Positions 11,310 to 63,550 of a DNA stretch of 64,000 nucleotides are shown here, one piece after another. The notes beneath the pieces are model-generated. The model searched no databases and was not told the DNA's origin. It was given only the letters and a program-made list of their open reading frames with translations. The DNA is taken from NCBI GenBank assembly GCA_016201865.1, contig JACQCA010000081.1:9546-73545 (forward strand). The letters run 5' to 3'. The position numbers and the translations under genes were made by a program. Positions within the stretch are counted from its first letter, which is position 1, and each line of letters starts with the position of its first letter. The DNA is from Nitrospirota bacterium (GTDB lineage: Bacteria; Nitrospirota; Nitrospiria; JACQBZ01).

Positions 11310-12863
11310 GTGATTGCGGTCACCGCCCAGGAAATGAAGCTTTTGGATCGCCGGACGATCGAGGAGTTTCATATCCCGGCCGGCGTCCTGATGGAAAACG
11401 CCGGGCGCCGCGTCGTGGAAGAGATCGAGAACACGCAGGGACCCGTGAAAGGAAAGACCGTCGTCGTCGCGGCCGGAAAGGGAAACAACGGCGGCGACGG
11501 GCTGGTCGCCGCGCGATACCTTCACGAGCGATCGGCTCATGTCTTCGTCTTTCTGATCGCCCCGCCGGAGGCCATGACCGGCGAGGCCCGGGCCAACCTT
11601 GAGCGGTTTCAGAAACTATCGGGCCGATTCCATCTCTTAAAGGAAGAGACGCTCGGCGATCTGACCGAAGCGTTGTCCCACAGCGATTGGGTCGTGGACG
11701 CTCTTTTTGGAACCGGACTCGCATCGCCGGTCCAAGGCCTCGCGGCTAAGGTGATCGCCGCGATCAATGCCTCCGGAAAACCGGTCATGGCCGTGGACCT
11801 CCCCTCCGGAATCCATACCGACACCGGGCAGGTGATGGGGATCGCCGTCAAGGCCGCGGTGACCGTCACCTTTGCGCTTCCCAAACGCGGCCTGCTGCTG
11901 TATCCTGGTTCAGATTATACCGGTCGTTTGAAGATCGCGGATATCGGCATCCCGGAGGCCCTGATCCGCCGGCTCCCGGCCGCCGTCCAGTGGATGACCC
12001 CGTCCGAGGCGGCCGACTCGCTCAAGCGACGACCAATGAACGCGCACAAAGGAACCTTCGGCCATGTCCTCGTGATCGCGGGCTCTGTTGGAAAGGGCGG
12101 GGCGGCCGTCATGACCAGCCTGGCCGCGCTTCGGGTCGGGGCCGGCCTGGTCACGCTCGCGCTTCCGTCCGGTCTGGAAGCATCACTGCCCGACCGTCCG
12201 CTTGAGATCATGACGCTGCCGCTGCCCCAAACGGCCGACCGGTCGATCGGACGGGCCGCGCTCGAACCCCTGTTGAAGTTCGCACAGGACAAGACGGTCG
12301 CGGCCATCGGACCGGGGCTCTCGACTCATCCCGAAACGGTCAATGTCGTTCATGACCTGGTGACGCGGCTGACGATTCCGATGGTGATCGACGCCGACGG
12401 CCTGAACGCGCTGGTCGGCCGTCTCGATCTATTAAAACAGGCCCGCGCACCGGTCGTGTTGACGCCTCACCCCGGCGAGATGGCCCGGCTAATCGGGGTT
12501 CGTGTTCCGGAAATCCAGGCAGACCGGCTTGAGGTTTCGGCCGATTTTGTACGGCGCCATCCGGTGACGCTCGTTCTAAAAGGCGCGCAGACGATCATCG
12601 CCGCGCGATCCGGCCTCCTCACGATCAATCCGACCGGGAATCCCGGAATGGCCACGGCCGGGACGGGAGACGTCTTAACCGGTATGATCGCCGGTCTGAT
12701 CGCGCAGGGTTATGAGCCCGATCTTGCGGCCCGTTTGGGAGTCTATCTTCACGGCCGGGCCGGCGATCTGGCCGCTTCTGAAGTCGGCGAGGTCGGTTTT
12801 CTTGCGGGAGACCTGATCCAACGTATACCGGCCGTGATCTCAAAGGCGCTGGGTCCTGCATGA
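11310..12863 (+). CDS. nnr: Bifunctional NAD(P)H-hydrate epimerase/dehydratase
   Basis: YjeF N-terminal domain (GKGNNGGDGLVAARYL) plus a C-terminal dehydratase domain (GTGDVLTGMIAGLIAQG). Confidence 0.9.
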   Translation: MIAVTAQEMKLLDRRTIEEFHIPAGVLMENAGRRVVEEIENTQGPVKGKTVVVAAGKGNNGGDGLVAARYLHERSAHVFVFLIAPPEAMTGEARANLERFQKLSGRFHLLKEETLGDLTEALSHSDWVVDALFGTGLASPVQGLAAKVIAAINASGKPVMAVDLPSGIHTDTGQVMGIAVKAAVTVTFALPKRGLLLYPGSDYTGRLKIADIGIPEALIRRLPAAVQWMTPSEAADSLKRRPMNAHKGTFGHVLVIAGSVGKGGAAVMTSLAALRVGAGLVTLALPSGLEASLPDRPLEIMTLPLPQTADRSIGRAALEPLLKFAQDKTVAAIGPGLSTHPETVNVVHDLVTRLTIPMVIDADGLNALVGRLDLLKQARAPVVLTPHPGEMARLIGVRVPEIQADRLEVSADFVRRHPVTLVLKGAQTIIAARSGLLTINPTGNPGMATAGTGDVLTGMIAGLIAQGYEPDLAARLGVYLHGRAGDLAASEVGEVGFLAGDLIQRIPAVISKALGPA

Positions 12864-48340: not shown

Positions 48341-51137
<2,797 letters not shown>

Positions 51138-51153
<16 letters not shown>

Positions 51154-52421
51154 TCCCGCTTTGCTAAATATCCCGTAAAGGTCTTATCCGAAAGATTTTT
51201 ACCCAACAACTGAACCTGGACGGTCCGGCCTTTCTCGATTTCACCGGATTCCGACGGAAAAATCAGGAGGCCGTTGGCCTTGACCATGGACGTCAAAACG
51301 CCGGAGCTCTGGCTCCCTGTCGTCCAGACCTCGTATCGGTCTGCCGTCTTTTTCACCACCGCTCTCAGGAAATGCGTTTTCCCTGTTTTTTTGGTGATCC
51401 GCTCCATCAAAACCGCCTCGATCACCGGACGGAAGAGCAGGGCATGGCCTTGCATCTTTCGCAACGCGGGTCGAACGAACTGTTCAAAGGTGACCATCGT
51501 CGAAACCGGATTCCCCGGAAGTCCGAAAGCGGGTTTCGTTTTCAACATTCCGAAGGCCAACGGCTCGCCCGGTTTCATCGCGACCTTCCAGAAGGCCATG
51601 GTCGCGCCCAGTTCGTCAAGCACATCCTTCACAAAATCATATTCCCCCACCGAAACGCCGCCGGAGATGAGAATCAGGTCGGCCGACAATCCCTGGGCCA
51701 GACGATCCGAAAGCTCCTCCCGCGTATCCTTCGCAACACCCAGGAGCACCGGAACGCCCCCGGCTTCGATCACCTGAGCCGCGACCGCATAGCCGTTGCT
51801 GTTCATAATCTTGTTCGGGCCCAACGCTTCACCCAGGTCGGCCAGTTCATTGCCCGTGGCCAGAATCGCGACACGGGGCCGCTGGTAGACAAGAACATGC
51901 GATCGCCCCACCGAGGCCAGCAGGCCCACCTCCGCCGGACCGATCACGCTGTTTTGTTCCAGAACGACATTCCCAGATTGGATATCCTCACCGCGAAGAC
52001 GGACGTTTTCACCCGCCTCGACCGGTTGGATGACACGGACGCGGTTTCCCTCGGTCCGTGTATCCTCGACACGGATCACCGCATCCGCGCCTTCCGGCAC
52101 GGGCGCCCCCGTCATGATTCGGCTGGCTTGGCCCGGTTGAATCGCCTTTTGGGGAAGAACACCCGCCGCAATCTCTTCAATCACCTCCAGAAGGACGGAG
52201 CGTTGCTCCGATGCCTGAGAAAGCTCGCCATGACAAACGGCATATCCATCCATCGCGGAACTATTCCAGGGCGGATGATCGCGCACGGATGCCACCGGCT
52301 CGGCCAGCACGCGTCCCAATGAATGAAGGAGATCCATCTTTTCCGTCCCCATCCGCTGAACCTGATCAAGAATCGCTTCCAGTGCCTTTTTGACCGGAAT
52401 CATTCCCATTTTCAAACCCAT
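51138..52421 (-). CDS. moeA: Molybdopterin molybdotransferase MoeA
   Basis: Length 427 aa with the MoeA domain order; GNELADLGE and PGNPVS. Confidence 0.85.
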
Positions 52422-52561: not shown

Positions 52562-54280
52562 TTACTTACGCTGTTGCTTGGCCGCATTCGCCTTGCGAAT
52601 AATCCAGCCCTCAAGCCCAAAGGCCAAGATCAGGGCCACGAAGGGATAGACATAGGCTTTTGTCGGAATCGGCGGCTCCAGGATCGTATAGTACCAGGTT
52701 GAAATGGATGATTTCAAACCATGGTCGCCGTTGTTGCCGTCCCATGCGAAGAAAACGGTCGGGATGTATTTGCCCATCTCAAACTGGACGTCGTTTTCTT
52801 TGTCGTTGGTGGTCATGGCCCTTGTCAGGATGACGCGCCACCGGCCGTCTTTATACTCGGAAAAAACGGCTTTTACGTCTTGATTTTGATGGGCCTCCAG
52901 TTTCAGATCACCCCCCATGGCACCATGACCGGTATATGCCTTAACCGTCCCGTCCGACTCCCACTTCCAAAGGTCAATGGCGCGTTTGGCATCGCCGAAG
53001 ACGAATCGCGGTTTTTCTGGCGGCGTTAACTCTTGCCACTTGGCCGGGAACTGAACACCGACGGCATCATTGAACATCGGATATTCCCTCGAAGCAATCG
53101 GCTTTCCGGCCGGCGGAGTTTCCTCAAAACTGGCCGCCTGCGCTAACGCTTCTGGAGAGGACGCACTCTTTATCCGATCGTCCCATTCAAAGGACCAGGC
53201 GATTTCTTTGCCGTTGAAAATGGATTTCACCCAAACCTCATCCACGAGACGGACAAAGTTCCTCGGTTTGTGAATGATCTGTCCGGCCAGCCCGATATAT
53301 TGAGAATCAATCTTCTGCCAAACCGCGTCATCAGGGTTGTTGGGAATATTCCCTTCAACGAAGTGTGCCTTCACCACGAACTGCAGAGCCGGATGAGCCG
53401 TCAGAGGATCGATCTTCCGCTTGGGACAAAGCGAGATCACAAAGTTGGCCACGTCCCAACGCTGTTCGGGCGTCAGCACATCGGCAAATGACGGCATCGG
53501 TGTGCCGTTCAGTCCCGTGGAAACCTCGCGAAAAACATTTTTGGGGTTGTAAGGATCTTCGCGGTTGCCGCGGAAGTTCCAGCATTTATGCAAGTCGGCC
53601 GGAAAGATCGGGAAACCCCATTCGTCTTTCTGTGTTTTGTTTCCATCCCCTCGTCCTTCATTGCCGTGGCATTCGACGCATTTCCCTTTATTCATAAAAA
53701 CTTCTTTTCCTCGTTTAATGCTTTCTTCAGAGGAAGCGACTTGTTTCCCGAAATCAATGACATGGAATTCTTCATTTTCCATGTCTTGGAAATTCCGCTC
53801 TTTTACAAGATTGGTCATGACAAACGAGACCACTTGGTGCCGTTGCTGATCGTTCAGAACTCCGTCCCAAGGCGGCATCGCAGATCCCGGCAAACCATGC
53901 GTCACCGTCAAAAAGAGATCGTTCTCCGTCGGAAGCTCTCCGCTGCCGGTGTGACGAATCTTGAATGTCCCCTGGTTAAAATTCCTGGGGCGAGGCCAGA
54001 GGCGATCCGCACCCGGGCCGTCTCCTGCACCTTCGGGGCCGTGACACCAAACGCATTTCTTAAAGTAAATCTGCTTTCCGGCATCGATGTCGGCGGGGGA
54101 AGGCTTTGCGGGCCGGCCGGCCGATGCAGCTGCAGCCGGCTTTTCCTCTTTCTTCGTTTCGGCCATGGTCAAGACCACAGTCCCGGTTGCAATGAATGCA
54201 AACGTGACGACACCCGTCATAACCGCTCTCGTCTTGCTAAAGCCTGATAAAAGCTTGTTCATCGCTTGCGCCCCTTTCAC
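52562..54280 (-). CDS. Membrane-anchored di-haem cytochrome c with a ~270-aa C-terminal domain and a C-terminal TM helix
   Basis: N-terminal TM, two CxxCH motifs (CVWCHG, CVECHG) and a C-terminal TM. Confidence 0.7.
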   Translation of the reverse strand: MKGAQAMNKLLSGFSKTRAVMTGVVTFAFIATGTVVLTMAETKKEEKPAAAASAGRPAKPSPADIDAGKQIYFKKCVWCHGPEGAGDGPGADRLWPRPRNFNQGTFKIRHTGSGELPTENDLFLTVTHGLPGSAMPPWDGVLNDQQRHQVVSFVMTNLVKERNFQDMENEEFHVIDFGKQVASSEESIKRGKEVFMNKGKCVECHGNEGRGDGNKTQKDEWGFPIFPADLHKCWNFRGNREDPYNPKNVFREVSTGLNGTPMPSFADVLTPEQRWDVANFVISLCPKRKIDPLTAHPALQFVVKAHFVEGNIPNNPDDAVWQKIDSQYIGLAGQIIHKPRNFVRLVDEVWVKSIFNGKEIAWSFEWDDRIKSASSPEALAQAASFEETPPAGKPIASREYPMFNDAVGVQFPAKWQELTPPEKPRFVFGDAKRAIDLWKWESDGTVKAYTGHGAMGGDLKLEAHQNQDVKAVFSEYKDGRWRVILTRAMTTNDKENDVQFEMGKYIPTVFFAWDGNNGDHGLKSSISTWYYTILEPPIPTKAYVYPFVALILAFGLEGWIIRKANAAKQQRK

Positions 54281-54292
54281 GTAAACGGATGA

Positions 54293-55207
54293 TTAATCCC
54301 ATGTCCTCGGGAAGAATTCGGTATGCCAGTATTCAAACATATTAACTTTCCAGATTTCGTCCGTGGTCAGATGCTCTTCCCACGGCGGCATCGCGGACGC
54401 CCATGGAAAACCTTCCCGTGGAAGCCCCGGCCCCCCCTTTGCAATTCTCCAGAAAACGAATGTCTCCTGGAGCTGGGCAATGGTTCCCGGATCGGAGAAG
54501 TTGGCCGGAATCGGGTTGAAGGCGAATGCAAACATACCGCGGCCGTTCAGGTTGTCGCCGTGGCAGAAGTGACAGTTCTGGAAGAAAATGGAACCGCCCT
54601 CCTTCACATACAGAAGGTACCCCTTCGCATCCGGCGCAAAGGGATTCTGCTTAAAATATTTATCCTCTTTGCCCACCGGCAGGTATTCACCCTTGTCGTC
54701 CACACGATAAGGGTTTCGAGCGGTCTGCAATGTAAAGTTCTGACCCCGCACCGTGGTGGATGCCGGCGGCGCCGGATGAACCGTCCTTAACTCGATCGGC
54801 TCGTCAAACTTGGGGACATTAAAATCATACGTCCCGTACCCAATTAGCAACGGGAGAACCACGAAGGAAACGCTCCGGACGCTTTTATAGACAGGGGTGA
54901 CGGCCATGACGGTATTTAGAATCGGCCGCTTAAATTCGGACCATCCCTTCTCCGTCGAAGAAATAAACAGGAAGATCACCAAGGTGACCAGTCCCATGTA
55001 GGTGTAGAGAAGCGCGGAGGGGATCGGCGGAGTCAGCACATACTTGAAGATCGACCAAGCTCCCAGCCAGATCAGGAGGGCCTGAGGAAAGGCAGGAATC
55101 CGCTTTCCTATTTTCTGTAAAACATAGTTGATGCCGATGTAAATAAACGTCGCGATCGTCAGGATAAGCAACAGTTCAATTGGCTTATAACCTTCAATCC
55201 ACATCAT
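54293..55207 (-). CDS. Polytopic membrane protein with a C-terminal mono-haem cytochrome c domain
   Basis: Four predicted TM helices, then CHFCHG. Confidence 0.7.
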   Translation of the reverse strand: MMWIEGYKPIELLLILTIATFIYIGINYVLQKIGKRIPAFPQALLIWLGAWSIFKYVLTPPIPSALLYTYMGLVTLVIFLFISSTEKGWSEFKRPILNTVMAVTPVYKSVRSVSFVVLPLLIGYGTYDFNVPKFDEPIELRTVHPAPPASTTVRGQNFTLQTARNPYRVDDKGEYLPVGKEDKYFKQNPFAPDAKGYLLYVKEGGSIFFQNCHFCHGDNLNGRGMFAFAFNPIPANFSDPGTIAQLQETFVFWRIAKGGPGLPREGFPWASAMPPWEEHLTTDEIWKVNMFEYWHTEFFPRTWD

Positions 55208-55281: not shown

Positions 55282-56499
55282 TTACGGAGCCGAAACCGCC
55301 TTGGCAGCCCCGCCGCAAACCGTGGCAAAGTTCTCTTGAGGCGGGCCAGGCAGGTTGTCTTTCTTCGCCGTATCACAATTCTGCTGAAGCAGATAGTCGG
55401 CTATCTTCTCCAAACCTCCATAGGTAAACTTCGTGGCAAAATCCTGGATCATCGGAGAAATTAGAGGATTCGACTTCTGCGCGAATTGATGCACAATAAA
55501 CGCATTGGGATCCACGATGGATTCCATAACGTATTCTTTGGGTGTCTTGGCATGGGCCTTCCCGGCCTTCACACGCGCCTGATATTCCGCAGAAGCAATG
55601 CGCCTTGGAGCATTATAGCCCTCGATGAGCATTGGACCGATCGCGCCGAATTTTGCTAAGGCAATCCCTGGAATCTGATGGCATGCAAAGCAACCCATCT
55701 TTGCGACAATCTGATCCGGAGTGTCGGAGGCCAAGACGATCGGAGGACCGGGAGGAGCGGCGGCTTGAGTGCCAGGTACGGCGGCCTTTGGACGATCCGC
55801 TTCAGGAATAAACTTCTCATAGGCCGCACGGATCTCTTTTGGAGAAGGCGGCGTCTCCCCTTCCCGATACCACAGCCAAGTATCCACGGCAATCAGTTCT
55901 TCGATGCTTAAAGCAATCGGGGGTTTGTGAATGACCGGCATCGGGCTATCACGATCATTGGTCCCCTTAGTACCGAATCCTTCCACCACAAAACAGGCAG
56001 GACAAGCATGGGATTCGGCGATATATTCCTCAGCCGTCGTCGCACGACCGCTTCCCTTAAAAGATTCGGTCGAAACAAAATCCGCTTTGATATACTTGGG
56101 GTCTTTAATTCGCTCTGCCGCCCTTTTGCCAAGCCCAATCAGGTTCGGAGCGCGATCTCCGATATCACCTTTCTTGAAGGTATGGCAAAGAGGGCATTGA
56201 CCTTTTCCGATTCCGCGTTCCGCGAATCCACCGACCTTTCCGAAGATGATGGTTTCGCCCATCTCGGACAATTTATCTGTTGGCATCGTATCGATTGCAC
56301 CGATATCCATCTTGATAACAGGCGGCACTTCACCCCGGGTCTGAGGCAGCCAGTTTGAGTAACTGGCAAATATCCCGGTCATGACCATGTAGAAGCCGAT
56401 GGCCGTCAGGAGCCCTCGGACTCTGGGGAGATTGTACCCCAAGATGAAAAGCGCAATTGCAGAGAACAGAATGGTGACGGCTAAATACCCTTGAGTCAC
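55282..56499 (-). CDS. Membrane-anchored di-haem cytochrome c
   Basis: CPLCH and CFACH motifs. N-terminal TM pair. Confidence 0.7.
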   Translation of the reverse strand: MTQGYLAVTILFSAIALFILGYNLPRVRGLLTAIGFYMVMTGIFASYSNWLPQTRGEVPPVIKMDIGAIDTMPTDKLSEMGETIIFGKVGGFAERGIGKGQCPLCHTFKKGDIGDRAPNLIGLGKRAAERIKDPKYIKADFVSTESFKGSGRATTAEEYIAESHACPACFVVEGFGTKGTNDRDSPMPVIHKPPIALSIEELIAVDTWLWYREGETPPSPKEIRAAYEKFIPEADRPKAAVPGTQAAAPPGPPIVLASDTPDQIVAKMGCFACHQIPGIALAKFGAIGPMLIEGYNAPRRIASAEYQARVKAGKAHAKTPKEYVMESIVDPNAFIVHQFAQKSNPLISPMIQDFATKFTYGGLEKIADYLLQQNCDTAKKDNLPGPPQENFATVCGGAAKAVSAP

Positions 56500-56573: not shown

Positions 56574-58496
56574 TTACTCCGAGCCGCCGGCCATAACGGG
56601 CCGCGCGGCCTCTTTCCTTGCCTCGGCTACTGCATGCTTGGAGGTCAATTCGCCTAACCAGAAAACAAACAACACGAACAACCAGAAGGCCATCACGTTC
56701 ATGGACATCACGTTCGCCGCAAAACCGATCGTATGCGTGAATGCCCACGGCGAGTTATCCCGGAAGACCTCCATCACGTGCCAGAACAGCCGCACGGAAG
56801 ACCGGATGTATCCCATTAGAGCCATCAACCACGTGAAAGAGACCGCGAGCGCGAACAGCGCATATTGCGAGCGCACCGATATTTTCCCCCACTCGATCAG
56901 ACCGGTCAGCTTGGAACCCCTCATCATCGCGATGTTGATGGCACTGCCAATGAACAATGTCGTCAGCGTCCCAACGACCTGGGGCACGGACAATCCCACA
57001 CGCACGTTGGCTGGGATGAAATATCCATAGATGGCCAGCCACCAGTTGTTCACCAGGGCCACGGCAAACATGGCCATCAAGGCCGCGTTGCCCCACGCCT
57101 CCCATTTCACCGTAATGATTTTGTTGCTGCGCTGATACAAAAGGAAGGAAATAATCGTGGTCATGATCATGGTGTTAACGGCCCCGTTCTTGGCCGACAT
57201 CACGCCGAAGTTTCCGATCACCGGATGCTGCTGCCCACCGATCGCTTTCAACTCCGCAGGACGCATCACCAAGGTATGCGGAGTCAACCAGACGAGGAAA
57301 GCGGCCGTAGTCAGGAAGAGGATATATTTAATGTATTTCTGATACTTCTCCGCTCCTCTCATTCTTTCCATCCCATTGAACAGATAGTAATTGGTCGAGA
57401 AGAAAAGCGCGCCGATCAGCACGGCCTGGATGATGAACAACCAGGCCAACAGACCGCCCATCAGGGTAATACCCATCTGCTGTCGGAAACCGTACACTTC
57501 ACGCATCAACCAGTAACCGGCAAATGGCAATGGAATTAACGAGCCCACCGCCATGAACATCGCGATGTACCCCATCCAGTCGTAGTACGCTTTTTCTTCC
57601 ATATTCCTGGCCGCAAGGAACTTATAGGCAGCATACGCCGCCACAATCCCGCCGCCGAAGACCATGTTTCCGATAATCCGATGGACGTTTAACGGATTCC
57701 ATAAAGCATTATGAAGAACCGCCCAGATGTTTCCCAAATACCGCCCCTTTTCATCCACACCGGCCGGAGACATCATGAAGCTGGCCCATGAATTGGCGAG
57801 CATCATCAAGACGGATCCGAAGACATTCAAAAGCACCCCCATGCAGGCATGCACCCATTTCGCAAAACCATGGGCCATGCGATCCCATCCGTAATAATAA
57901 AGATAGAGCGTTCCGCTCTCTGCCAAGAAGAGCAGAGCATAGATATGCATCACCGGCCTAAAAAGGGAGGAGATGTATTTAAAGAAATCGGGGTAGAGGG
58001 TGATAAACGAGAAAAGGAGCAACCCGCCCAGGATTGCGGTGACGGAATAGGCCGTAAGACTGATCTTGACCAAGAGATGTGCAAGATCATCGTACTTCTT
58101 GGACATCACCGGATCCTTGGTCAACAAACCGACCAACTCGATGATCATGCAAAAGATCGGAACGGCCAAGACAAAACTTCCAAAATAGAGATGCTGCTGC
58201 GCGATCGACCAGATCAGGATTCGGTTTTCACTTAATGGGTAAGGAAGGTTATAGCTGGGATAATCAGTGGCTTTCAGCTCAGGAACCGGCTGGCCGGAGA
58301 CGGGGCCCTCTGTCTTAAAGTAAATATCCTTCGCCATTTCGACTTTAGGCGCAGCCTCGGTTGCGGCCTTTGTCGCCTCATCGGCCATCACGGGGGATGA
58401 GAAGAACGGCATGACCAGCGACAGCAACAACGCCGTCGCCACAGCCCCTAATGAAAGCAGGGACCATACCCGCATCCTTTTACTTATCGCCTTCAT
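56574..58496 (-). CDS. Cytochrome bd-like (CydA-homologous) putative terminal oxidase subunit
   Basis: Polytopic, 640 aa. A conserved His in TM1 (QQHLYFGSFVLAVP) matches CydA His19. No cydB is adjacent. Confidence 0.7.
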   Translation of the reverse strand: MKAISKRMRVWSLLSLGAVATALLLSLVMPFFSSPVMADEATKAATEAAPKVEMAKDIYFKTEGPVSGQPVPELKATDYPSYNLPYPLSENRILIWSIAQQHLYFGSFVLAVPIFCMIIELVGLLTKDPVMSKKYDDLAHLLVKISLTAYSVTAILGGLLLFSFITLYPDFFKYISSLFRPVMHIYALLFLAESGTLYLYYYGWDRMAHGFAKWVHACMGVLLNVFGSVLMMLANSWASFMMSPAGVDEKGRYLGNIWAVLHNALWNPLNVHRIIGNMVFGGGIVAAYAAYKFLAARNMEEKAYYDWMGYIAMFMAVGSLIPLPFAGYWLMREVYGFRQQMGITLMGGLLAWLFIIQAVLIGALFFSTNYYLFNGMERMRGAEKYQKYIKYILFLTTAAFLVWLTPHTLVMRPAELKAIGGQQHPVIGNFGVMSAKNGAVNTMIMTTIISFLLYQRSNKIITVKWEAWGNAALMAMFAVALVNNWWLAIYGYFIPANVRVGLSVPQVVGTLTTLFIGSAINIAMMRGSKLTGLIEWGKISVRSQYALFALAVSFTWLMALMGYIRSSVRLFWHVMEVFRDNSPWAFTHTIGFAANVMSMNVMAFWLFVLFVFWLGELTSKHAVAEARKEAARPVMAGGSE

Positions 58497-58650: not shown

Positions 58651-58667
58651 CCGCGCTTCACAAACCT

Positions 58668-58783
58668 TAATGAAACAGGAAAAAGTAATCAAGCCCCTGT
58701 ATTTTCATAAACAACCAATCCATAGTTTGAAAATAAAACACCCAAACCACGAGCATCACCACAAAAGCAATCACCGTTTTCAT
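58668..58783 (-). CDS. 38-aa single-TM peptide
   Basis: MKTVIAFVVMLVVWVFYFQTMDWLFMKIQGLDYFFLFH. SD AAGGTGG lies 6 nt upstream. Found manually; it is below the ORF-track size cutoff. Confidence 0.4.
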
Positions 58784-58856: not shown

Positions 58857-58955
58857 TCAGTGATAAAGCGCCCCGAACCAATAGAAGAACCAGATCGAAA
58901 CGACGCAGACGATGACATACAAAATCGGACCGACATTCTGACGGATTTTATCCAT
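58857..58955 (-). CDS. 32-aa single-TM peptide
   Basis: MDKIRQNVGPILYVIVCVVSIWFFYWFGALYH. A perfect SD AAGGAG lies 8 nt upstream, behind a strong promoter. Confidence 0.45.
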   Translation of the reverse strand: MDKIRQNVGPILYVIVCVVSIWFFYWFGALYH

Positions 58956-58984: not shown

Positions 58985-59035
58985 ACAAGTGGTGTGATTT
59001 TAGTGAATCAGAAAAAATTTGTCAAGCAAAAAATC
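58985..59035 (-). promoter_or_regulatory. Sigma70 promoter (copy 2), TTGACA-N17-TAAAAT
   Basis: Contains the same 17-mer ATTTTTTGCTTGACAAA as copy 1, then the -10 box TAAAAT. It drives the 32-aa peptide gene. Confidence 0.55.
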
Positions 59036-59100: not shown

Positions 59101-60012
59101 TTACACGGGCTTCGCGCAGCGAAACCCAATAGTTACATCGCGATACTCAGGATACATTTTAAAACGGATCGACGTCTGGGCGCGCTTGATCGAATCGTTC
59201 CAGGAGGCTCCCCGAATCACCCGGCTCTCTCCATCCGGAACCCCAGCAGGATTGCTCGCCGGCAACAACCGGTAGGAATCCTGGTTATACCAATCCGCAA
59301 CCCATTCCATCACATTGCCGGCGAGATCATGAACTCCATAAGGACTGACGTCCCGCGCAAATTGCCCCACCGACGCTGTATAACGCGCGCCGTCGTCGCC
59401 CAATAGATTGGCATATTCAGATCGCTCCTCATTTCCCCATGGCCATTTCCGCCGGTCCGTTCCCCGGGCGGCCTTCTCCCATTCCGCCTCGGTCGGAAGC
59501 CGTTTTCCCTTCCATTGACAATAGTCAACCGCATCGTCCCAGGACACCCCGACAATCGGATTCAAAGGCTTGATGAAGAGCGGCAGGTCTTCCGTCACGC
59601 TGCTCGAGAGATATCCCGCCAGCCGAGGTTTCCGGTGTCCGGTCAAGCCGATGAAGGCATAGAACTGCGCAAATGTAACCTCATACTTATCGATATAAAA
59701 TCCGCCTAGGGAGACCCGGCGAACCGGCTTTTGATCATGCGACCCTTCGGGGCTTCCCATGGTAAATTCGCCCGCAGGGATAAAGACCATCGCTTCGAAT
59801 TCGTCATCCACCTTGACCTGTCGCACTTCCGCCTCGGCTTTCTTGGACTCTTCCGCGACCCTCTCCAGCTTTTTGGCCAAGGGGGTGTATCCCTTATCCG
59901 AGGTCTGCACCTCCACCGCGGGAGGTCCCGGTTCCTGGCGGATACCGACTTGGATGATGGCCAGAATGATGAAAACCAGCGACAGGTAAATGGCAATCAG
60001 ATATTTGCTCAT
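59101..60012 (-). CDS. Formylglycine-generating-enzyme (FGE-sulfatase) family protein, membrane-anchored
   Basis: N-terminal TM. WKGKRLPTEAEWEKAARG...WPWGNE...RGASWND. Confidence 0.8.
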   Translation of the reverse strand: MSKYLIAIYLSLVFIILAIIQVGIRQEPGPPAVEVQTSDKGYTPLAKKLERVAEESKKAEAEVRQVKVDDEFEAMVFIPAGEFTMGSPEGSHDQKPVRRVSLGGFYIDKYEVTFAQFYAFIGLTGHRKPRLAGYLSSSVTEDLPLFIKPLNPIVGVSWDDAVDYCQWKGKRLPTEAEWEKAARGTDRRKWPWGNEERSEYANLLGDDGARYTASVGQFARDVSPYGVHDLAGNVMEWVADWYNQDSYRLLPASNPAGVPDGESRVIRGASWNDSIKRAQTSIRFKMYPEYRDVTIGFRCAKPV

Positions 60013-60238
60013 GATGCGCCTTCGGTTCCAACGGCTTCACAAACCGAGCAGGGACTTGTATCCTTAGGACAACGACAGCGGCAAACGGTCTGCTGGGCCG
60101 AGAGAGAAGAAGCGTCGGGCACCCATAGAGACGGCCGGACGTTTCATGTTGACATGCACGCGGTATACGCAAACGGCTTCGAGAGTCGCAAGCCGCGCGC
60201 AAGGAAAGGGGCGGGTATTTGAACGACGCGGATTTCTC

Positions 60239-60445
60239 TCACCGTCGTCGGCCCGTCACCGCCGGTTTCGGCTCGCCGATACCGACCTCGCCGTTCGAAC
60301 CTGTGCGGGACGGCCATGCCGCCATCTCGGATTGTTTTTGACGGCTGACTCTTGACCGGTACAACATCTGACCGATAAAGAGACCGGCCATGAACACGGC
60401 CCCCGTATAGAACAGGATATAGACGGCGTAGAAAAAATGTTTCAA
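60239..60445 (-). CDS. Small membrane protein with a YTGAVF motif
   Basis: MKHFFYAVYILFYTGAVFMAGLFIGQ plus a basic tail. Confidence 0.5.
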   Translation of the reverse strand: MKHFFYAVYILFYTGAVFMAGLFIGQMLYRSRVSRQKQSEMAAWPSRTGSNGEVGIGEPKPAVTGRRR

Positions 60446-60509
60446 CGGTTCACCTCCTCAACGCCCACAGCCCCACTCCTTGCCGCTCTGAACAGGGAGC
60501 GGGACGGGA

Positions 60510-60797
60510 TCAACCTTTTCTCAAGGTTAGTTCATCCGATTCACGGAATTCCGTTATTTCACCGGACGCGACCGGGGGATCTCCATCGTCCGCAGAGCGG
60601 GATGCAAGACGCCTTTCCATCCTTTCCCCAAGGTACACACCGAGCATAAAAACCGCACCGGTATAGACCAAAACATAGAGGGCGTACAACTGCACGACCA
60701 GCATGCCGGCCAGAAAAACGGCCCCCGTATAGAGGGCGATGGAGAGCAGTGAAAAAGCACGACGCATCGTCAAACAACCTTTCTCGGCGCGTTGCAT
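60510..60797 (-). CDS. Small membrane protein with two YTGAVF repeats
   Basis: SIALYTGAVFLAGMLVVQLYALYVLVYTGAVFMLGVYLGE. Confidence 0.5.
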   Translation of the reverse strand: MQRAEKGCLTMRRAFSLLSIALYTGAVFLAGMLVVQLYALYVLVYTGAVFMLGVYLGERMERRLASRSADDGDPPVASGEITEFRESDELTLRKG

Positions 60798-60815
60798 GAA
60801 TCGTTCACCGGGTGA

Positions 60816-60935
60816 TTAAGCCCCTCGACGTTCCTCCCACGCGCGTTCGAGCTTCTCTCCAACATACATCCCTGCCGCAAACACAGCGGCGGTGTAGATA
60901 GAAACGGAAAGGGCGTAAAAAAAGAAATGGACCAT
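60816..60935 (-). CDS. 39-aa membrane peptide, YTAAVF variant
   Basis: MVHFFFYALSVSIYTAAVFAAGMYVGEKLERAWEERRGA. Found manually. Confidence 0.4.
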   Translation of the reverse strand: MVHFFFYALSVSIYTAAVFAAGMYVGEKLERAWEERRGA

Positions 60936-61273
60936 CTAAGACACCCCTGCCAGGCGGATTTATTATATAAAGTTCATCACGGACGTGTCAAGCCTAACAG
61001 CCGGACCGGGTTTTCGACCGTAGGAATCACGCAACAAAAACCGCTTGACTTCTTCAACGTTTTTGTTAGAATGGCGGACACGAAGGCGAAGCCATGGACA
61101 GCCCGGAACAGAGAAAGCGAAACACGCCCACCTTTGATTTCATCGTGCTGCTCGGCATGGTGGCCAATCTGATCCTGGCCGTCTTCCTGATTCTTTATTA
61201 TTTCGGTCTTTTCTAATCGACAGATCTTCACGCATTCTCCATCACGATTCCGCCATGTCTCCGCTGAACAACC

Positions 61274-62191
61274 CTAATCGGATTTCGTCTCCGGTTCGGT
61301 GGAATCATCCTTGGCGCAGCGAAACCCGATCACCGCACTGGTCTGATGCCGGGCGGCCGCAAATCGTTTGGCCGCTCTCGCATTAACCGAAGATTCGTTC
61401 CAGGATCCTCCGCGGTAGATCCGAAATTTTCCCGTCTCGGGTCCCTTTGGAATTTTAAAAGGCGCGTTTTTATAATAATCCGGATCATACCAATCGGCGA
61501 CCCACTCCGCCGCATTCCCCGCCATGTCATATAATCCATAGGGGCTCCGTCCCGACTCAAATTGCCCCGGCGGAGCTAAAAATTTATAGCCGTCCTCTTC
61601 ACCTCTTAAATTGGCCGCCTTTGCGAGGAAATCGTTCCCCCAGGGCCAGCGGTAGCCCTGCTCTCCTCCGGCCGCTTTCTCCCATTCGGCTTCGGTCGGC
61701 AGCCGCTTCCCGGCCCATTGACAATACTCCCTCGCCGCATCCCATGATACCCCGACGACCGGCAAATCGGGTTTGGTGATCAGGGATAGCTCTTCTTGAA
61801 AGACGGGGACCACGGGCATCGGATACCTCGTCGCCGCCGAAAATTGAGAAAATTGGGCCTGGGTCGCCTCTTTAAGATCGATATAAAAAGCCGGCAGGTA
61901 GACCGCATGCTGAGGCATCTCATCCAAATCCCCGGCGCTGGGCAGGCTGCCCATCTGAAAAGGTCCCTCCGGGATCAATACCATCTCTCCGCCGTCTTCG
62001 TCCTTGATCGTTTTGAAGCGGCTGAAATCGCGCTTGCGGCTCTGTCCCTCTTGAATCGGCTCTCCTTTCATGCTCCGGGCCTTGGAGGCCAGTCGGCTGG
62101 ATTTCCAGGCATCATAAATAAAAAAGACGATCATGAGAAAAAAGGCGATGAATGTGATGAGCGTGCCGTAGTACAGCGTATCTTTCTTCAT
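61274..62191 (-). CDS. Formylglycine-generating-enzyme (FGE-sulfatase) family protein, membrane-anchored; paralogue
   Basis: WAGKRLPTEAEWEKAAGG...WPWGND...RGGSWNES. Confidence 0.8.
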   Translation of the reverse strand: MKKDTLYYGTLITFIAFFLMIVFFIYDAWKSSRLASKARSMKGEPIQEGQSRKRDFSRFKTIKDEDGGEMVLIPEGPFQMGSLPSAGDLDEMPQHAVYLPAFYIDLKEATQAQFSQFSAATRYPMPVVPVFQEELSLITKPDLPVVGVSWDAAREYCQWAGKRLPTEAEWEKAAGGEQGYRWPWGNDFLAKAANLRGEEDGYKFLAPPGQFESGRSPYGLYDMAGNAAEWVADWYDPDYYKNAPFKIPKGPETGKFRIYRGGSWNESSVNARAAKRFAAARHQTSAVIGFRCAKDDSTEPETKSD

Positions 62192-62364: not shown

Positions 62365-63384
62365 ATGCGCTCCTGGGATCGGCGAAAGTTTCTGAAGATT
62401 TCCGGACTCGGCGTTCTCATGACCCTGGCGACGAGCCGGGTCCAAGGAGCGATGTATTTCCTGAAGACATTCTTATCGCTCCCGTCCCGCCAAACCGCTC
62501 CGATAACACCCAACCCCGAATTCTATGTTTATGACATGGGCCGCATGTCAAAAATGATCCGGGATCTGGATTATTCCCGATGGACGTTGAATCTCACAGG
62601 CCTCGTGAAGAATCCCCTCGCTTTAACGCATGACGCACTGAAGCGACGGCCTTCCCGCGAAGCCGCCGTGACATTGGAATGCATCGAAAATCCGGTGGGC
62701 GGCGATACGATCAGCAATGCGATCTGGCGAGGGGTTTCGCTCAACGATCTTCTCGTCGAAGCCGGAGCGGACCCGTCGGCAAAGAAAGCGGTTCTCAAAG
62801 CAGCGGACGGATACAGCGATAGTATTCCGCTCAAGCGGGCGATGGACGGCGATGTTCTGCTGGCCTATGAAATGAACGGGGTTCCCCTCCCGCGAGAACA
62901 CGGGTATCCCTTGAGGGCCGTCGTCCCCGGAATTTACGGAATGAAGAATGTGAAATGGATCATGGAGATCGAAGTGACGACGGCCGACTATCGAGGGTAT
63001 TGGCAACAGCGCGGGTGGTCCGATGAGGCCGTGATTGGAATCATGTCCCGGATCGACAGCCCCGGGGCCTATCAGGAATTGATCGGTTTGCACCAACCGA
63101 TTCGCGGAATTGCCTTTGCCGGATCGTCCGGCATCCGACAGGTCGAGGTCAGCACCGATGGCGGGCGCACGTGGAGTCCATCTCAAATAGATTCCCCTTT
63201 ATCCCCTTACACGTGGGTATTCTGGCGATTGGACTGGCAGGTTCCCCGGGCCGGGGTCTATCGTATCGTTGTCCGCGCCACCGATCGCTCCGGCCGTCTC
63301 CAGACGGCGGAATACACCCGAGGATTCCCGAACGGGGCAACCGGACTTCATACCGTCATGGTTGAGGTGGTCTCGGCAAAATGA
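62365..63384 (+). CDS. Sulfite-oxidase-family molybdopterin oxidoreductase, TAT-exported
   Basis: Twin-arginine signal DRRKFLKISGLGVLMTLATS. Moco-binding domain plus a dimerisation domain. Length 339 aa. Confidence 0.8.
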   Translation: MRSWDRRKFLKISGLGVLMTLATSRVQGAMYFLKTFLSLPSRQTAPITPNPEFYVYDMGRMSKMIRDLDYSRWTLNLTGLVKNPLALTHDALKRRPSREAAVTLECIENPVGGDTISNAIWRGVSLNDLLVEAGADPSAKKAVLKAADGYSDSIPLKRAMDGDVLLAYEMNGVPLPREHGYPLRAVVPGIYGMKNVKWIMEIEVTTADYRGYWQQRGWSDEAVIGIMSRIDSPGAYQELIGLHQPIRGIAFAGSSGIRQVEVSTDGGRTWSPSQIDSPLSPYTWVFWRLDWQVPRAGVYRIVVRATDRSGRLQTAEYTRGFPNGATGLHTVMVEVVSAK

Positions 63385-63386
63385 AT

Positions 63387-63464
63387 TGGTGTCCCCAAGG
63401 GGATTCGAACCCCTGTTACCGCCGTGAAAGGGCGATGTCCTAGGCCGGGCTAGACGATGGGGAC
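63387..63464 (-). tRNA. tRNA-Glu (UUC)
   Basis: Anticodon arm CGCCCUUUCACGGCG matches E. coli tRNA-Glu. T-arm GGGGUUCGAAUCCCC. Ends in CCA. Confidence 0.85.
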
Positions 63465-63474
63465 GCAAAATAAA

Positions 63475-63550
63475 TGGTGAGCCGCCCGGGATTCGAACCC
63501 GGGACACCCGCCTTAAAAGGGCGGTGCTCTACCAGCTGAGCTAGCGGCTC
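63475..63550 (-). tRNA. tRNA-Lys (UUU)
   Basis: GAGCCGCUAGCUCAGCUGGUAGAGC...CCGCC-CUUUUAA-GGCGG...GGUUCGAAUCC...CCA. Confidence 0.85.

Follow-up and report, generated by a model that had tools for sequence, protein, structure and literature searches.

Two membrane-anchored proteins with the fold of the formylglycine-generating enzyme (FGE) and, between them, several very small open reading frames (ORFs) with a shared hydrophobic YTGAVF motif occupy positions 59101–62191 of the window, the 64,000-nucleotide stretch of Nitrospirota DNA analysed here (contig JACQCA010000081.1 of assembly GCA_016201865.1, positions 9,546 to 73,545 of the forward strand), and the question raised by this locus is what such proteins do together. 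The first-pass annotation presented the small ORFs as a diversifying tandem array nested between duplicated FGE-type enzymes and considered them as possible membrane partners, substrates or regulators of these enzymes. Gene order across related loci indicates that a respiratory gene cluster conserved in Nitrospiria has this interval as its upstream half, and this oxidase-cluster context is, as judged from synteny, the main clue to function. We propose, with a probability of roughly 0.55, that the products of the block serve the neighbouring complex as accessory subunits or assembly factors, with the small proteins forming a helix bundle, the FGE-like proteins serving as scaffolds and the YTGAVF triad being a lineage-specific addition.

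The ORF list and the Pfam FGE-sulfatase matches showed two FGE-fold paralogues bracketing three small minus-strand ORFs, as first described. FGE_A (61274–62191, minus strand, 305 aa; PF03781, E 4e-57) and FGE_B (59101–60012, minus strand, 303 aa; E 1e-58) matched the family over the whole domain and were 45.6% identical to each other over 250 aa, and each carried a single N-terminal transmembrane (TM) helix (hydrophobic residues 7–25 and 6–24), in agreement with the paralogy and the membrane anchors initially proposed. Between them, also on the minus strand, lie SP1 (60816–60935, 39 aa, MVHFFFYALSVSIYTAAVFAAGMYVGEKLERAW), SP2 (60510–60767, 85 aa) and SP3 (60239–60445, 68 aa, MKHFFYAVYILFYTGAVFMAG), of which SP1 and SP3 are predicted single-pass membrane proteins. 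The pattern YT[GA]AVF.[AGL]G was found four times in the six-frame translation of the window, always within SP1–SP3 and, as already seen, twice in SP2. It did not appear in any of 100 first-order Markov simulations, in which a looser form of the pattern averaged 0.06 copies per simulation. The shared M-x-H-F-F-(F)-Y-A start of SP1 and SP3 is likewise real. Three further micro-membrane proteins had been overlooked, namely SP0 (61094–61216, plus strand, 40 aa) between FGE_A and SP1, and SP4 (58857–58955, minus strand, 32 aa, MDKIRQNVGPILYVIVCVVSIWFFYWFGALYH) and SP5 (58667–58783, minus strand, 38 aa, MKTVIAFVVMLVVWVFYFQTMDWLFMKIQGLDYFFLFH) beyond FGE_B, as had the oxidase-cluster context and the existence of FGE pairs without the triad.

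The comparison set consisted of 19 related loci (L001–L019) drawn from metagenome-assembled genomes (MAGs) and metagenomes. Seventeen of these, all from uncultured Nitrospiria, carry SP1–SP3 (L001–L016 and L019), and two are triad-free, namely the complete genome of Nitrospira sp. Kam-Ns4a (L017) and a metagenome contig (L018); the presence of the triad was scored wherever a contig reaches the position. Ratios of non-synonymous to synonymous substitution rates (dN/dS) were computed between the window and the four closest loci, at dS values of about 0.4–2.5, close to saturation. SP1, SP2 and SP3 stood in the same order in all 17 triad loci, directly upstream of an FGE_B orthologue whose identity among these loci drops as low as 50%. 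SP1 orthologues were found in every triad locus covered at that position (dN/dS 0.12–0.22) and SP3 orthologues in every triad locus (dN/dS 0.06–0.13), and SP2 gave dN/dS values of 0.11–0.17. Even the most divergent triad locus, L019, whose bd-like protein is 71% identical to that of the window, keeps all three genes with a degenerate motif, as in its SP3 (MKHLLYVLYVSLYAAAVFLAG).

Shine–Dalgarno sequences and start positions are conserved among the orthologues. The TTG start of SP3 follows GAGGAGGTG, and the same position is ATG or GTG in orthologues. The SP2 frame runs to 60797, which would give the 95 aa first reported; since all orthologues begin at MRR and a GAAAGG Shine–Dalgarno sequence precedes the second ATG, this second ATG is the likely start and the protein probably has 85 aa. 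The small ORFs are short, are annotated only as 'hypothetical' and include one TTG start, all of which could be expected of chance ORFs in an intergenic spacer between paralogous genes. Such an origin is scarcely conceivable and is refuted by the comparative data, namely orthologues with conserved reading frames in 17 loci, dN/dS well under 1 at near-saturated dS, conserved Shine–Dalgarno sequences together with a perfect promoter, and a motif with zero chance expectation. The comparative evidence thus identifies SP1–SP3 as real, paralogous protein-coding genes under purifying selection, and the description of the small ORFs as conserved paralogous membrane proteins holds, the length of the middle one excepted.

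The evolutionary part of that description does not hold. The YTGAVF units within the window share only 67–75% DNA identity over 51 nt, so that recent duplication or gene conversion was rejected and the paralogy must be old. Together with the separate orthologue group of each gene and the strong purifying selection on all of them (dN/dS 0.06–0.22), this makes SP1–SP3 a fixed triad, not a diversifying array. The motif is conserved in homologous loci, a point on which the first-pass annotation had made its proposal depend and on which the proposal survives. The expected co-occurrence with FGE paralogues was borne out in one direction, in that FGE_B directly follows SP3 in 17 of the 17 triad loci, but not in the other, the FGE pair being present without the peptides in L017 and L018.

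A search with SP2 returned 38 homologue clusters at 49–70% identity, and where their sources bore organism names these were all uncultured 'Nitrospiria' or 'Nitrospirae' bacteria. An SP2 profile run against 1.84 billion representative proteins gave only 42 hits, several of which were SP3 and SP1 paralogues; 41 of them were 40–115 aa long, the exception being a 2040-aa protein at E 5.8e-4. Look-ups of 30 distant members yielded no cultured-organism name, only Nitrospiria, Nitrospirae or Nitrospirota MAGs. SP1–SP3 had no PADLOC match at E ≤ 0.01, and none of the micro-proteins matched a Pfam or NCBIfam family at E ≤ 1 to 10 save for chance-level hits to unrelated membrane families. Membership in PLD_nuc_N (PLDc_N), which had been raised for the small ORFs, found no Pfam match even at E ≤ 10. 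As far as these searches reach, the SPs are small-protein families without a name in current databases and gene callers.

Active FGE, or SUMF1, uses two active-site cysteines (C336 and C341 in the human protein) to bind Cu(I) and to catalyse. The AlphaFold2 (AF2) model of FGE_B (mean predicted local distance difference test score 88) comprises a TM helix at residues 3–26, a disordered linker, a charged helix at 45–65 and the FGE domain at 70–303, and its top Foldseek hits were genuine FGEs from S. coelicolor, T. curvata and human, at 30–34% identity and TM-scores of 0.68–0.75. Aligned to human FGE, FGE_B has a gap at C336 and an Ile opposite C341. All 42 aligned relatives, FGE_A included, have exactly two cysteines, at other invariant positions (C165 and C299); those of FGE_A are residues 157 and 292, neither at a catalytic position. 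FGE_A and FGE_B are, by these alignments, proteins of FGE fold without the catalytic, copper-binding cysteine pair and are not formylglycine-generating enzymes, so the label of FGE-type enzymes has to be given up for the whole orthologue group. In place of the catalytic loop stands a nearly invariant segment (IRGASWNDS...RFKM.PEYRDVTIGFRCA), which suggests a retained binding site with other chemistry, binding of a ligand or partner being the simplest reading. No sulfatase domain was found among the 18 neighbouring proteins scanned, and neither FGE-like protein had an anti-phage match in PADLOC at E ≤ 0.01. Assignment to PvdO, to GldK/PorK or to the C-terminal domain of EgtB was rejected, as the NCBIfam scores of the two proteins lay far under the cut-offs (GldK, 111 and 102 bits against 350; PvdO, 91 and 84 against 500; EgtB, 88 and 79 against 360).

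The loss of the cysteine pair also bears on the suggestion that the small proteins are substrates, that is, client peptides or precursors akin to ribosomally synthesised and post-translationally modified peptides (RiPPs) that the flanking proteins would modify. Genuine FGEs bind extended peptides, small ORFs beside a modifying-enzyme fold resemble RiPP loci, and a weak, sub-threshold NCBIfam hit to a cittilin precursor was obtained (E 0.023, 15 bits against a cut-off of 34). However, the catalytic pair is missing in all 42 relatives, and the conserved motif sits within a TM helix and includes no Cys- or Ser-x-Pro-x-Arg (C/S-x-P-x-R) sequence. Moreover, the peptides are TM helices with basic tails, lacking a leader/core architecture, and the FGE pair persists without them in Nitrospira. 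We consider a substrate role very improbable.

What remains common to the loci is the oxidase cluster next to the block. Downstream of SP5 on the minus strand lie genes for a bd-like (CydA-like) membrane protein (56574–58496, 640 aa), a membrane-anchored dihaem cytochrome c (55282–56499, 405 aa; CPLCH and CFACH), a membrane-anchored monohaem cytochrome c (54293–55207, 304 aa) and an NxrC-like subunit (52562–54280, 572 aa). The bd-like protein matched Pfam Cyt_bd_oxida_I with its N-terminal part only (E 2e-15, profile positions 9–238 of 418) and had at least 11 hydrophobic segments by a crude hydropathy count. The NxrC-like subunit, with two CxxCH haem c motifs and an EB_dh haem b domain, matched Pfam Cytochrome_CBB3, Cytochrom_C and EB_dh. 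Both cytochrome c genes are syntenic in all loci, and the bd-like orthologues are 64–96% identical, that of Nitrospira sp. Kam-Ns4a at 67% by BLASTP and 64% by tblastn. In every locus long enough to tell, the FGE/SP block lies directly upstream of the bd-like cluster, with FGE_A, FGE_B, SP4 and SP5 co-oriented with the oxidase genes and SP0 on the opposite strand. The genes for arginyl-tRNA synthetase (ArgRS) and tRNA-guanine transglycosylase (TGT; 48341–51153 for the two, minus strand) follow the oxidase cluster both in the window and in Kam-Ns4a, and the synteny around the cluster is therefore very old. In the window, moeA also stands after the oxidase cluster (51138–52421).

The two triad-free loci separate the core of the block from its additions. 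Their order runs from a second bd-like gene, a DUF3047 gene and a gene for a 118-aa glycine-rich membrane protein to FGE_A, FGE_B, SP0 (on the opposite strand), SP4 and SP5, and then to the bd-like gene, the two cytochromes c, the NxrC-like subunit and, after further genes, ArgRS and TGT. Identities between the window and these loci were 52–53% for FGE_A, 41–50% for FGE_B and 66–70% for SP0, and no significant match to SP1, SP2 or SP3 was obtained in either. The presence in both of the FGE pair, SP0, SP4, SP5 and the oxidase cluster indicates that these are common to the clade of the window and to Nitrospira; since L017 and L018 keep all this without SP1–SP3, the triad is a lineage-specific addition. 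In the triad clade, outside Nitrospira, FGE_B is placed after the triad and not after FGE_A as in L017 and L018. The second bd-like gene, the DUF3047 gene and the gene for the 118-aa protein, which is glycine-zipper-like, occupy positions 2383–5340 of L017 and have no counterpart at the locus of the window.

The micro-proteins outside the triad are the more constant ones. SP0, with a basic N-terminus and a C-terminal TM helix (FDFIVLLGMVANLILAVFLILYYF), was found in 17 loci, including both Nitrospira-type loci, and shows the strongest conservation among the block's micro-proteins (dN/dS 0.02–0.05). SP4 (dN/dS 0.03–0.10; Shine–Dalgarno AAGGAGA) and SP5 (dN/dS 0.05) were found in all loci that cover their positions, Nitrospira included, and in every locus they lie directly upstream of the bd-like gene. 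The statistics for SP5 leave out L009, where masked bases (N) at about 12014–12116 cut into the SP5 orthologue and the beginning of the bd-like gene. FGE_A orthologues, 52–84% identical, were found in 15 loci, again including Nitrospira.

Promoters divide the block into likely transcription units. A sigma-70 promoter with a 12/12 match (TTGACA-18-TATAAT, 60962–60991, minus strand) lies 26 nt upstream of SP1. With spacers of 17 or 18 nt, it recurs at the same place as a 12/12 match in nine of 11 loci and as an 11/12 match in a tenth, despite near-saturated synonymous sites; the persistence of a consensus promoter through such divergence points to high expression. Upstream of SP0 is a promoter-like, TG-extended site (TTGACT-16-TAGAAT, 61045–61072, plus strand, 10/12), the hexamers of which recur in eight of 11 loci. 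Upstream of SP4 is another (TTGACA-17-TAAAAT, 58997–59025, minus strand, 11/12), with a 10–11/12 match in 10 of the 10 loci tested (TTGACA, or TTGACT in L014; 17 nt; TAxxxT). No conserved promoter was found before SP2, SP3 or SP5 in the loci compared, and the window scan found no minus-strand promoter site between SP3 and FGE_B. From this pattern the likely units are SP0 alone, SP1-SP2-SP3 with probable read-through into FGE_B, and SP4-SP5, from which transcription possibly continues into the oxidase genes. The spacer between SP3 and FGE_B measures 226 nt in the window and only 18 nt in L019, and neither a conserved element nor a terminator was found in the 226-nt gap (column identity 49%). 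Candidate intrinsic terminators were discarded, as terminator-like hits fell inside coding sequence and numbered seven against 4.4 expected by chance. An Rfam scan of 52–64 kb returned two tRNAs as the only structured RNAs.

These conserved promoters, being the block's own, are also the first argument for a different reading, in which FGE-like proteins and micro-proteins together make up a membrane module of their own, for instance for envelope sensing or periplasmic binding, that is merely syntenic with the oxidase. FGE folds have many non-respiratory roles (PorK, PvdO and kinase-linked domains are among the PDB and NCBIfam hits), and other neighbours of the block vary, such as a CarboxypepD_reg-like protein, a giant ORF resembling copper oxidases and a molybdenum enzyme. 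Against this, adjacency to the bd-like gene and co-orientation with it were found in every locus from the clade of the window to Nitrospira, despite saturated synonymous sites and the rearrangement of FGE_B relative to SP0, and SP4 and SP5 stand immediately before the bd-like gene. We regard an independent module as rather unlikely, and the accessory role in the respiratory complex remains the reading that we prefer.

Each YTGAVF unit is a hydrophobic stretch or helix of 20–25 residues, and the small residues of the motif fall on one helical face (G-A-x-x-x-A-G), a typical helix-packing surface. Charge counts over the orthologues predict SP1 and SP3 as N-out/C-in, with an N-terminus of 1–3 residues outside and a basic C-terminus inside, SP2 with both ends inside, and SP0, SP4 and SP5 as N-in/C-out. 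SP2 combines two hydrophobic YTGAVF units with a disordered, acidic tail that ends in ESDELTLRKG; its orthologues in L012, P0166 and P0170 have polar or Pro-containing insertions between the two halves, which supports a helical hairpin. SP3 has an invariant M-[KR]-H N-terminus with Tyr at +3 and +6 after the His, and a basic, predicted cytoplasmic tail. The second helix of SP2 bears the same ladder of tyrosines (Y-x2-Y-x3-Y), and SP1 keeps its helix-start His also in orthologues with an extended N-terminus (..GH in L014, L016 and L019).

Considering these features, we propose the following scenario. The four YTGAVF helices may pack via their G-A-x-x-x-A-G face into a small bundle that also takes in the TM anchor of FGE_B. 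The FGE domains without the cysteine pair would serve at the membrane surface as scaffolds or binding modules devoid of catalysis, in the manner of pFGE/SUMF2, PvdO and PorK. The FGE pair and the triad, along with SP0, SP4 and SP5, would either belong to the adjacent bd-like/cytochrome c/NxrC-like complex as accessory subunits or help to assemble it, and SP1–SP3 would be a lineage-specific extra of this accessory set, outside its core.

Several observations weigh against this scenario. The one tie between the block and the oxidase is gene adjacency, and the block's own promoters leave co-regulation with the oxidase genes a supposition. Nitrospira lacks SP1–SP3 but has the rest, and the triad must therefore be dispensable for the role of the core; FGE_A is missing from the triad loci L006, L012 and L015. 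Searches of Pfam and NCBIfam gave no sequence similarity of the SPs to known small oxidase subunits. The AF2 single-chain model of SP2 from the window is one continuous 59-residue helix with no hairpin, which, given the insertions in orthologues, is not taken as evidence against the hairpin. Furthermore, the net charge C-terminal of the TM helix is +2 to +5 for FGE_A in 11 of 13 lineages and negative for FGE_B, so that the two domains may face opposite sides of the membrane. With the FGE_B domain predicted outside and that of FGE_A possibly cytoplasmic, a simple model of a common ectodomain does not account for the charge pattern.

The His and Tyr residues of SP1 and SP3 invite a further idea, that these two proteins, perhaps together with SP2, hold a cofactor on the periplasmic side of the membrane, either haem b in the manner of cytochrome b559 or Cu(II) through an X-X-His sequence in SP3 like the amino-terminal Cu(II)- and Ni(II)-binding (ATCUN) motif. 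The His at position 3 of SP3 is invariant, a His is kept at the helix start of SP1 whatever the length of its N-terminus, Tyr residues follow at i+3 and i+6 in SP3 and at i+4 in SP1 beside the ladder in SP2, the topology predicted from charges is N-out, and genes for haem and copper proteins abound in the neighbourhood. On the other hand, in most members the His lies only 1–2 residues from the N-terminus, leaving little protein for a haem pocket; in some SP1 lineages it is at position 8–9, which speaks against a conserved ATCUN geometry; SP2 lacks a His, and the FGE proteins have no copper-binding cysteines. Cofactor binding appears improbable. Cytochrome b559 (PsbE/PsbF) is built from two small single-pass proteins of unequal length, each with one conserved His near the same helix end. 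SP1 and SP3 would resemble it in size (about 39 and 68–83 aa) and in having one conserved His each, but their His is nearly at the N-terminus, and the binding of haem is hypothetical. An equally speculative extension combines this idea with the accessory role. The complex would have an unrecognised accessory layer in which two cysteine-less FGE proteins, perhaps facing opposite sides of the membrane, join as many as six micro-subunits. In lineages with the triad, the His/Tyr cluster of SP1 and SP3 would bind a redox cofactor (a b559-like bis-His haem or copper) at the periplasmic face for electron entry; we hold this to be a long shot.

Other genes adjoin the block. A sulfite-oxidase-family molybdoenzyme with a twin-arginine translocation (Tat) signal (62365–63384, plus strand, 339 aa; RRKFLK; Pfam Oxidored_molyb and Mo-co_dimer) is divergent from FGE_A and has the same position in L004 and L007–L010, being a frequent, not a universal, neighbour; it could be an electron donor to the bd-like complex. 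A CarboxypepD_reg-like protein is often encoded directly upstream of FGE_A, and a giant ORF (1634–1666 aa) with weak multicopper-oxidase hits adjoins the FGE/SP block in L006 (1–4858), L012 (1–4641) and L013 (1–4167). Tandem genes for tRNA-Glu(TTC) and tRNA-Lys(TTT) lie at 63387–63550 on the minus strand, and beyond them, at the window edge, is the end of an adenylosuccinate-synthetase-like ORF, named by synteny with L001 only.

Related clusters have been described in cultured and enriched Nitrospirota. According to the respective papers, bd-like_3, two cytochromes c and alt_NxrC_2 are among the 40 most transcribed genes of N. moscoviensis (PMC6606698), TO_1 is a terminal-oxidase candidate of Ca. 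Manganitrophus (PMC9040806), and both the bd-like_3 and the TO_1 cluster fall within the OR-N family of the cytochrome bd superfamily (bioRxiv 10.1101/2021.01.16.426971). The cluster of the window is like these OR-N type clusters (bd-like_3/alt_NxrC_2 and TO_1) in its CydA-like protein with the N-terminal core only, its cytochromes c and its NxrC-like subunit, and this last fits the description of 'alt_NxrC' (PMC6606698). Both papers treat the subunit composition and function of the bd-like/alt-NxrC cluster as a standing question (PMC6606698, PMC9040806). In the passages and terms searched, these papers do not mention the upstream FGE-fold pair and micro-protein genes. A full-text literature search found no paper linking FGE-fold proteins to bd-like clusters. 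NITMOv2_3647, given as a 915-bp 'hypothetical protein' in the transcriptome supplement for N. moscoviensis, may be one of the genes upstream of bd-like_3. The Ca. Manganitrophus table lists one small single-TM hypothetical protein, Ga0306812_102734, which is encoded two genes from the bd-like gene, ranks at the 88th percentile of expression and might or might not be one of the SPs (PMC9040806). Two dead FGE-fold proteins with SP0, SP4 and SP5 accompany the bd-like/alt-NxrC cluster across 19 loci, from Nitrospira to uncultured Nitrospiria lineages, and in one large uncultured clade they are joined by three further micro-proteins, paralogous to each other and preceded by a consensus promoter. 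These proteins would be concrete candidate subunits for a respiratory complex of nitrite- and manganese-oxidising Nitrospirota; if they are unrelated to the complex, SP1–SP3 would be an ordinary lineage-specific family of small membrane proteins.

Both parts of the proposed accessory set have counterparts among known systems. The inactive FGE-fold proteins pFGE/SUMF2 (1y4j), PvdO (5hha) and PorK/GldK (9mzu, 9ots), all three of which were among the sequence or fold matches, likewise have an FGE/C-type-lectin-like fold without the cysteine pair, and in them the domain binds partners or forms scaffolds. FGE_A and FGE_B differ from these in being nearer to genuine FGEs, at 30–34% identity, and in being anchored by a single N-terminal TM helix, whereas the others are soluble or are lipoproteins. 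Terminal oxidases have small accessory subunits of their own, such as CydX, CydS and CydH in cytochrome bd and CcoQ in the cbb3 type. The SPs differ from them in that none matches a Pfam or NCBIfam small-subunit family and that SP1–SP3 stand one gene, FGE_B, away from the oxidase gene and have their own promoter. They resemble them in being proteins of 30–90 aa with one or two TM helices, encoded near oxidase genes and easily left unannotated, and SP4 and SP5 resemble CydX, CydS and CydH further in lying directly upstream of a CydA-like gene, in Nitrospira as well. Micro-subunits encoded close to oxidases are familiar, and so is the use of inactive enzyme-fold paralogues as binders; the block at this locus, if our reading is right, would bring the two together.

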